64,000 nt of DNA from an uncultured Candidatus Saccharibacteria bacterium (GCA_964578645.1 CAZODR010000003.1:13951-77950); one strand, 5' to 3'. Shown: positions 24,611-25,010, numbered from the stretch's first letter. The notes: generated by a model not told the origin, from the sequence alone. Translations and numbers: made by a program.

Positions 24611-24634
24611 CGCCAGTCGTCTGCTACATATACT

Positions 24635-24829
24635 CTAATTAGCCAGGCAGCGGAGAGGAAGACCGTAGTAACGATAGCCGTTGACGTCCGACGGGCCGAC
24701 GATACTACCATTGAAGTCGAGACGGTGGGCATTGATACCACTTGCGCGCGACGAAGATGACCAGGCGCAGCCAACGATGCCAGAGTACCACAGCTTACCG
24801 TTATTGATACTGACGAAGCCGCTGCGCAC
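24635..24829 (-). CDS. FISUMP-like C-terminal cassette A (64-codon ORF starting at GTG; may be a silent cassette rather than a gene)
   Basis: VRSG...WSS...AHRLDFNGSIVGPS...GLPLRCLAN. Conserved 5' GTGCGCAGCGGC and a 35-nt 3' block. The unit 24621..24832 differs from 33177..33388 at 1 nt. Confidence 0.45.
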   Translation of the reverse strand: MRSGFVSINNGKLWYSGIVGCAWSSSSRASGINAHRLDFNGSIVGPSDVNGYRYYGLPLRCLAN

Positions 24830-24839
24830 AAAGGTTAAT

Positions 24840-24862
24840 AATGTTGTAAAATTTACAACATT
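24840..24862. repeat. 23-nt perfect palindrome AATGTTGTAAA-A-TTTACAACATT
   Basis: Seen directly. Related copies lie at 37273..37295 and 46232..46254. Confidence 0.9.
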
Positions 24863-24927
24863 TAGGGATAAAGATCAGTAAAGTCTTCCCAGAACTTAGC
24901 AAATCTGTCAAAAATCCCTAAAAACTA

Positions 24928-24993
24928 TTGACAAAAAGCATAACCTGTGATACAATGAAAGTATAAGCCTCGATGAGGCTCGATCTGTAGTGT
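24928..24993 (+). promoter_or_regulatory. Orphan cassette promoter plus 5' hairpin leader with no cassette behind it
   Basis: TTGACA-17-TACAAT, then GTATAAGCCTCGATGAGGCTCGATCTGTAGTGT. This matches the modules in front of cassettes B and G, but homology stops exactly where GCGCAGCGGC should begin. Confidence 0.7.
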
Positions 24994-25010
24994 CTAGATA
25001 TATAAAATCC

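Follow-up and report, generated by a model that had tools for sequence, protein, structure and literature searches.

Organization of the locus

The window, that is the whole stretch of DNA that was analysed (64,000 nucleotides of an uncultured Candidatus Saccharibacteria bacterium, GCA_964578645.1 CAZODR010000003.1:13951-77950), holds exactly seven short cassette units, here called A to G, together with three leaders and three palindromes; no relic fragments of units were found in these 64 kb. Cassette A occupies 24621..24832 on the minus strand (ORF 24635-24829, 64 codons from a GTG), with its 5′ box GTGCGCAGCGGC at 24818-24829 and its 3′ box and tail at 24622-24655. Cassettes B, C and D form an array on the same strand at 32519..32837 (including a leader and promoter P2, 32761-32789; ORF 32534-32725), 32887..33098 (ORF 32904-33095) and 33177..33388 (ORF 33191-33385), the last of these being the twin of A. 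Cassettes E (36672..36883; ORF 36689-36880) and F (37055..37262; ORF 37068-37259) are again on the minus strand, and F stands head-to-head with the plus-strand cassette G at 37427..37634 (ORF 37427-37618). The B-C-D array is bracketed by a 77-nt direct repeat (88%; 32411-32487 and 33471-33547) that contains a terminator hairpin, and the first copy of this repeat abuts the gene for tRNA-Lys (32336-32412).

Comparison of UvrA places the window among the gut or rumen Saccharibacteria, with L001 as the best relative at 87% identity. The exact UvrA and cassette A protein sequences are not on record, the leader pattern had no match in metagenome contigs, and no sequence from the same species was found in the collections searched. 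The interval between uvrA and rplY measures 17 kb in the window (24611-41800) against 0-2 kb in relatives and contains, besides the cassettes, tRNA genes for Lys, Arg and Glu, a WxL/CscA-like surface cluster, a methyltransferase, an SPFH protein and pyruvate kinase. This interval is a rearrangement hot spot.

All seven cassettes are intact ORFs of 63-64 codons with the pattern MRSG...PLRCLAN, each complete and with its own GTG start. This start is not preceded by a well-placed Shine-Dalgarno sequence, a GAGG being read 13 nt upstream, and six codons upstream of the ORF start an in-frame TGA is present in B, in G and in an orphan leader to the right of A. The first 12 nt of the units (GTGCGCAGCGGC) are invariant across the seven cassettes, and the last ~36 nt (CTCTCCGCTGCCTGGCTAATTAGAGTATATGTAGCA), which extend 17 nt past the stop codon, are nearly so, with one change in C and in F and two in G. 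The GC-rich 3′ element CTCTCCGCTGCCTGGC is unchanged in six of the seven units and carries a single substitution in F (CTAGC). Between these conserved ends the middles are highly variable. For 14 of the 15 window cassette pairs compared, pN was lower than pS. In two pairs, A-E and E-G, codon positions 1 and 2 have at least as many mismatches as position 3, a pattern that fits past diversification.

Cassettes A and D are identical but for one base

Base-by-base comparison confirmed the sequence-only reading in that 24621-24832 equals 33177-33388 over 212 nt with a sole mismatch, G at 24661 against A at 33217, and a repeat search of the window independently returned the same pair. The identity breaks at 24620/33176 on the left and 24833/33389 on the right, and the flanks are unrelated, as had also been claimed: beyond the left border 16 of 20 bases differ, and most bases differ on the right side too. 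Other cassette pairs in the window are ~60% identical, so the agreement of A and D is far beyond chance. On the coding strand the mismatch is C/T and does not fall on an adenine; the A at 33217 gives Phe in D, in line with the family consensus GFPLRC, and the G at 24661 gives Leu in A.

The body of A and its surroundings tell different histories, since the module to which A belongs is 86-89% like that of F and G and yet its body is 99.5% identical to D, the A protein being only ~49% identical to that of F. The distance from A to the neighbouring palindrome is the same as that from F to its palindrome, which argues that the site is old and the body new. An old site with a new body is the mark left when one existing site is replaced non-reciprocally from another. 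Because A and D differ at no adenine, mutagenic homing cannot have made the twin.

A promoter and leader without a cassette

To the right of A lies the 19-nt palindrome TGTTGTAAAATTTACAACA (TGTTGTAAA-N-TTTACAACA; 24842-24860), 12 nt from the A start codon, and beyond it the plus-strand orphan promoter P1 (24928..24956), which is near-consensus (TTGACA, 17 nt with a TG extension, TACAAT). The orphan leader that follows it (24961..24993, plus strand, 33 nt) contains the hairpin AGCCTC-GAT-GAGGCT at 24966-24980 and ends with ...GAGGCTCGATCTGTAGTGT / ...CTGTAGTGT at 24993, two nucleotides into the family 5′ box GTGCGCAGCGG. In B and G the leader leads directly into GTGCGCAGCGGC, whereas the orphan leader continues into CTAGATAT... 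and then into the minus-strand terminator 25044-25015. The stretch 24994..25062 (minus strand) comprises this junction and the terminator hairpin (25015-25044) of a WxL-like gene at 25063-25701, and the earlier observation that the leader meets the terminator of a surface-protein gene, with no cassette start, is accordingly borne out at 24993/24994.

The intact counterpart of 24833-24993 is the spacer between F and G (37263..37426, plus strand), which contains a palindrome (37275-37293), promoter P3 (37363-37391) and a leader with hairpin. The proposed homology of the region right of A to this spacer held up, at 89% for 37269-37305 and 86% for 37352-37428. We take the orphan promoter-leader to be, probably, the expression-driving half of a module arranged head-to-head like its paralog F-spacer-G. 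From the homology to F-G and the prevalence of head-to-head pairs in the wider family (34 of 44 close pairs, see below), a plus-strand partner is expected after the orphan leader, and the suggestion that such a cassette once sat here is in this way supported, its former presence being something we infer. The orphan break, two bases into the 5′ box, coincides with the point where unit copying begins. A search after 24993 at up to three mismatches revealed no remnant of a cassette tail.

An inverted repeat with arms of 114 nt and 82% identity also involves the orphan region: its left arm is 24880..24993 (plus strand) and its right arm (32724-32837) is the promoter-leader of cassette B, so that the two arms bracket 24994-32723; the orphan and B leaders are identical over their last 19 nt. 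Inversion of 24994-32723 was considered as the origin of the orphan, as it would bring B into place after the orphan leader and so restore a head-to-head arrangement. It is disfavoured by the orientation of the surface cluster, which matches L001, by the fact that one promoter is orphaned in either state and by the arms, where no run of identical bases exceeds 19, and is kept as a possibility only. The idea that the orphan is an ancestral promoter of the surface gene was rejected, as the core promoter and leader match the cassette type instead.

In L001, uvrA is followed by the same palindrome, and then come a promoter and the genes of a WxL-like surface protein and a CscA-like protein, all oriented as in the window. 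Since the relative already has the surface cluster beside uvrA, the cluster stands at its native position and the 25-32 kb surface-protein block is probably not a newcomer there, so that synteny lends no support to the earlier proposal that this block had been joined in at a break. Relative to L001 the extra part is cassette A with the promoter module. The orphan region has the palindrome in common with L001, as well as an AAATC-GTCAAAATCC element upstream. Paralogs of the palindrome are found in the window at 37275-37293 and 46234-46252, and the L001 copy (~12878-12896) lies directly after the uvrA stop codon. The palindrome may be a regulator site or a terminator, and its position near the SOS gene uvrA is suggestive. 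Near-consensus promoters at 4718, 24900, 37335, 44689, 55544 and 62186 have in common an upstream AAATCTGTCAAAA and a GTATA(A/G)G start region, a design that appears to be the standard strong promoter of this genome.

A family of units in other Saccharibacteria

Similar units, delimited by a 5′ GTGCGCAGCGG box and a 3′ CTCCGCTGCC box with a ~25-nt tail, are widespread in Saccharibacteria, and a box-based scan returned 104 metagenome stretches that contain them. From many genomes we gathered 181 units by nucleotide boxes alone. The box-to-box length is in frame in 172 of these (171-216 nt, in steps of 3) and an in-frame stop is absent from 174. Conversely, units that were found only by protein searches carry the same nucleotide boxes, as was the case for all those in L081, L085, L086 and L089. 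Members of the family are dispersed, with at least 12 matches on one contig of 176 kb, and some are stable single-copy genes, such as P0049, which is identical at the same locus across many assemblies. We found no published description of such a family of lectin-like mini-genes in the literature on Saccharibacteria with FISUMP, cassettes or diversity-generating retroelements (DGRs).

For half of the units the next one lies no more than 600 nt away. Of the 44 pairs so formed, 34 are head-to-head, with spacers typically of 82-141 nt that contain hairpins. In the spacers of 120-141 nt (L125 7599-7739, L139 6192-6332, L130, L137 and others) two related hairpins flank the conserved motif CCCCTGTTA / TAACAGGGG, and these spacer hairpins had no Rfam match. 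In the low-GC L197 (GCA_964608555.1) every unit has the synonymous 5′ box variant GTGCGTAGTGG, a sign that unit ends evolve in concert within a genome. The same genome has tandem arrays of at least five units and of two units (4986-6207 and 10400-10900) with the tail CTAGTACGGTAGGGATAATGGTAATGG.

Many pairs of units in relatives are 99-100% identical and sit in random flanks. In most such pairs the identity starts 0-5 nt before the 5′ box, and where both units have the same tail type it ends 19-28 nt past the 3′ box. Twins on the same contig are L122/L153 and L139/L189, and two further pairs lie within one assembly. The recurrence of such twins makes A and D one instance of a recurrent box-to-box copying. 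Together with the contrast between an 86-89% module and a 99.5% body, these twins with the same limits on other Saccharibacteria contigs uphold the part of the sequence-only reading in which the cassette was copied as a discrete unit.

The units encode the last third of a lectin-like domain

None of the seven mini-proteins matched a Pfam or NCBIfam model, even at E≤1, and six-frame searches of the window revealed no further domains. A search with a profile of the family, by contrast, collected 6575 relatives. In the long ones Pfam puts the matched stretch at positions 127-187 of the 187 of PF09603, and also in PF07603, and hhalign aligned the family with 98.4% probability to residues 822-891, the last 70, of the FISUMP protein P0212, the PF09603 match of which spans 670-890. 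The units thus encode only the C-terminal third of the FISUMP/Lcl_C C-type-lectin-like domain. The likeness to FISUMP (Fibrobacter succinogenes major paralogous domain, PF09603/TIGR02145) and Lcl_C (PF07603) is one of homology over the last ~60-70 residues, where the common stretch reads ...G..G.YWSS...AY.L.F....V.PS...R..GF.[VL]RC....

The N-terminal two thirds of FISUMP/Lcl_C, with the motifs W..NL... and CP.GW.LP, are absent, and the ORFs start at VRSG; unlike these proteins, the mini-proteins have no N-terminal ~120 residues, signal peptide or lipobox, and they reach no Pfam or NCBIfam threshold. They also have a VRSG/FPLRCL signature that is not seen in the multidomain proteins. Among the proteins retrieved, only mini-ORFs or open tandem unit runs carry this signature, and no protein of more than 250 aa, the 150 best relatives included, has VRSG and PLRC together. 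An AlphaFold model was of low confidence (pLDDT 57) and too weak for a fold search, and a profile search against PDB sequences gave noise only.

Relation to diversity-generating systems

At one locus, L168, a reverse transcriptase (PF00078) with the motifs GNLTSQ...YVDD lies 245 nt from an AAC-rich unit with an unusual 3′ tail. Such motifs are typical of DGR reverse transcriptases. About 25 units carry an alternative tail, ...GCCGCGGYGGGGTGCCGATCTTT, and these units are rich in Asn (12% versus 5% in ordinary units). In comparisons of these with ordinary units, 43% of the mismatches fall on adenines of the alternative-tail unit, as against 17% when the direction is reversed (Mann-Whitney p about 1e-12; best pair 12 of 15 on adenines), and between ordinary units 24% of mismatches are on adenines. 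The alternative-tail units of relatives thus behave as DGR template repeats and the ordinary units as variable repeats. The unit ends are then the limits of DGR homing in relatives, which explains the constant ends, the variable middle and the choice of the C-terminus of a lectin fold.

Template-type units are present in L094, L098, L113, L114, L116, L124, L130, L142, L150, L168, L194, L195 and others, and the first part of the GCCGCGGYGGGGTGCCGATCTTT tail can pair with the 3′ box in a terminator-like manner. Among the unit loci searched, L168 is the only one at which the reverse transcriptase was seen, and several template repeats may share one such enzyme.

A motif search and a jackhmmer run with the L168 enzyme as query returned no reverse transcriptase from the 64-kb window, and no template-type unit or tail was found there either. 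The window units differ from one another at all base types, not at adenines alone, and the adenine-directed pattern of template and variable repeats is absent among them. A DGR hallmark that the window does have is a variable region at the C-terminus of a lectin fold with a conserved GC-rich 3′ element. For this genome the link to DGRs is therefore one of homology only.

The nearest known systems are the DGR repeats on targets with a C-type-lectin fold, as in Mtd of Bordetella phage BPP-1, TvpA of Treponema and the DGRs of the Candidate Phyla Radiation (CPR), the last forming clade 2 of Roux et al. 2021 (PMC8144416). Like these, the units combine a variable C-terminal lectin-like segment with constant limits and a GC-rich 3′ element and, in relatives, AAC-rich template-type copies, adenine-directed mismatches and an adjacent reverse transcriptase. 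They differ in that the target is the variable segment almost alone, 63 aa lacking the N-terminal two thirds, that many dispersed copies are present per genome, and that several template-type units accompany the one reverse transcriptase seen. The window further differs from DGRs in having no reverse transcriptase, template-type unit or adenine pattern, and in an A/D event that was non-mutagenic. CPR DGR targets have been reported to lack other recognisable domains, and remote targets to be missed by surveys (PMC8144416); the mini-genes agree with this account of CPR targets without other domains.

Probable conservative copying between existing sites

The explanation that we prefer, to which we would give a probability of roughly 60%, joins three elements: a family of mini-genes, a non-mutagenic overwriting from box to box that gave rise to the A/D twin, and an orphan promoter-leader that is half of a head-to-head module. 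It draws on the identity of A and D and its limits, the coding nature of the units, their homology to the lectin-like fold, the twins and the head-to-head rule of the family and the DGR signature in relatives, all of which are observed. The direction and mechanism of the copying we infer as follows. A and D would be pre-existing sites of the family, one of which was very recently overwritten by the other, box to box, in a non-reciprocal and non-mutagenic event, and a single C/T substitution would have occurred since. The overwriting could have been a gene conversion anchored in the conserved ends or an error-free, template-directed homing, and possible routes would include RecA acting on 5′ anchors of 12-15 nt, repair synthesis primed in the longer 3′ homology, and an error-free cDNA. 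A RecA-type conversion would have just these 12-15 nt of 5′ homology at its disposal, a short length by the standards of ordinary homologous recombination. The window units would then be lectin-fold variable modules linked to DGRs, reduced to mini-genes and copied conservatively as whole units.

Several other explanations were weighed against this one. A few promoter-leader expression sites might be served by silent donor cassettes, with the orphan as an emptied site, an arrangement that the sequence-only reading implied. There are three consensus promoter-leaders for seven units, the conserved flanks and variable centres resemble the donor cassettes of pilS, vls and msp2, in other genomes some units abut with no promoter between them (as with the 17-nt spacers in L085, L137 and L143), and the A/D twin shows that copying happens. 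What makes this arrangement unlikely is that the units are complete ORFs with a GTG and with an in-frame TGA six codons upstream, leaving no constant N-terminal part to which a cassette could be joined, and that none of the long proteins retrieved combines the two signature motifs. Moreover, A and D are both promoterless, so that their twinning was not a transfer from donor to expression site, and the family includes stable single-copy genes. The units do share with the silent-cassette systems (Neisseria pilE/pilS, Borrelia vlsE, Anaplasma msp2) variable centres between conserved flanks, several promoterless copies and non-reciprocal copying in tracts that end in the flanks, but they are individually complete ORFs, with flanks of 12 and about 36 nt that are much shorter than in those systems, and in relatives they are dispersed among housekeeping genes. 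A full-length expressed gene with cassette flanks was found neither in the window, which has the seven mini-ORFs only, nor among the long proteins retrieved. Distinctly unlikely, too, is a MITE-like or IS200/IS605-dependent element that inserted beside uvrA and left the orphan leader as the mark of a precise excision, even though identity limits are sharp and flanks unrelated in the window and in other genomes, the end boxes contain the inverted heptamers GCAGCGG/CCGCTGC, and a fragment of a Y1 transposase lies on the unit-bearing contig L085. The terminal inverted repeats amount to the 7-nt heptamer, neither A nor D has a target-site duplication, no transposase is encoded in the window, and units were absent from all of 2.9 million viral contigs, and it is on these grounds that transposition, which the sequence-only reading had offered beside conversion, is not supported. 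The strong constraint on reading frame and the homology to a real protein domain speak against an element of this kind as well, and the common position of A and F relative to the palindrome indicates an old cassette site and not a new insertion.

Mutagenic DGR retrohoming from one template would account for box-to-box limits, and in relatives the family is linked to DGRs, a template-tail and a variable-tail unit (L130/L109) being identical exactly between the boxes; the codon-position bias of the A-E and E-G pairs is likewise in its favour. As the origin of both A and D it is nonetheless very improbable: A has ~31 adenines on the coding strand, none of which differs from D, the single difference is C/T, two independent mutagenic events could not yield the same sequence, and the window has neither a reverse transcriptase nor a template-type tail. 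It is harder still to believe that the twin or the orphan junction is an artefact of repeat-induced mis-assembly. The region is rich in short repeats and the identical last 19 nt of the orphan and B leaders might invite such an error, but A and D both have unique flanks on either side and a one-base difference, the repeat is just 212 nt long, the junction lies in no exact repeat of more than 19 nt, and independent assemblies of other Saccharibacteria have similar twins. Least tenable is a reading of the units as structured non-coding RNAs in which GCAGCGG pairs with CCGCUGC to close the molecule. Such RNAs could explain why the ends are conserved at the nucleotide level, synonymous sites and the 17 nt past the stop included; the minimum-energy fold does pair the two boxes, and the L197 variant GUAGUGG would retain the pairing through G-U. 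The folding energy, on the other hand, is no better than that of shuffled sequence (z = +0.24), no Rfam match was obtained at the gathering or a permissive threshold, lengths vary in steps of 3 and leave the frame intact in 95% of units, and the protein homology is clear. Non-coding RNA as the sole explanation is largely refuted; a regulatory pairing of the mRNA ends could exist beside the coding function.

Beyond the preferred reading of conservative copying between existing sites, a more speculative and on balance doubtful extension is that of a cassette network, in which complete lectin-like mini-genes would be both hypermutated by DGRs and copied intact between boxes, the head-to-head spacers with their promoters serving as the expressed positions. 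In such a network intact copying would proceed by conservative retrohoming or by a dedicated short-homology conversion, and the A/D twin and the emptied promoter would be snapshots of the shuffling.

Saccharibacteria live as ultra-small episymbionts for which attachment to host bacteria is a necessity, and little is understood of their surface and recognition repertoire. With dozens of 63-residue lectin-like modules in each genome, the family would constitute an unusually compact system of variation, provided that the ends are fixed at the nucleotide level, that a reverse transcriptase diversifies the units in some lineages and that whole units are copied between loci in others. The family raises the questions of whether the variable segment alone can be a DGR target, whether several template repeats can depend on one common reverse transcriptase, and whether error-free box-to-box copying occurs beside mutagenic homing. 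In current annotation the units are unnamed hypothetical ORFs or are missed entirely.

A putative promoter switch and other repeats in the window

The F/G module resembles invertible promoters and shufflons (fimS, hin, the R64 shufflon) in that a promoter-bearing spacer lies between opposed units and is bounded by perfect 12-bp inverted boxes (GCCGCTGCGCAC ... GTGCGCAGCGGC), and a tyrosine recombinase gene is nearby. It differs from them in that this recombinase is accompanied by inverted repeats of its own, 144 nt long and placed around the WxL genes, that at the orphan site a box is present on one side only, and that the window sequence bears no sign of inversion.

The 144-nt inverted repeat in question (99%; 25619-25762 and 26729-26872) surrounds the tyrosine recombinase gene (PF00589, 25763-26728), and each of its arms holds the 5′ part of a WxL-like surface-protein gene, the two genes being paralogs (25063-25701, minus strand; 26790-27407, plus strand). 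A -35 element, TTGACT, is located at 26709 in the putative invertible segment and the -10 element in the repeat, so that only the plus-strand gene now has a full promoter. The arrangement of repeat and recombinase looks like a promoter-swapping phase switch. Elsewhere in the window, a 46-nt tandem duplication (93%) is present at 17959-18050 and a 21-nt periodic repeat within an ORF at 51661-51765.
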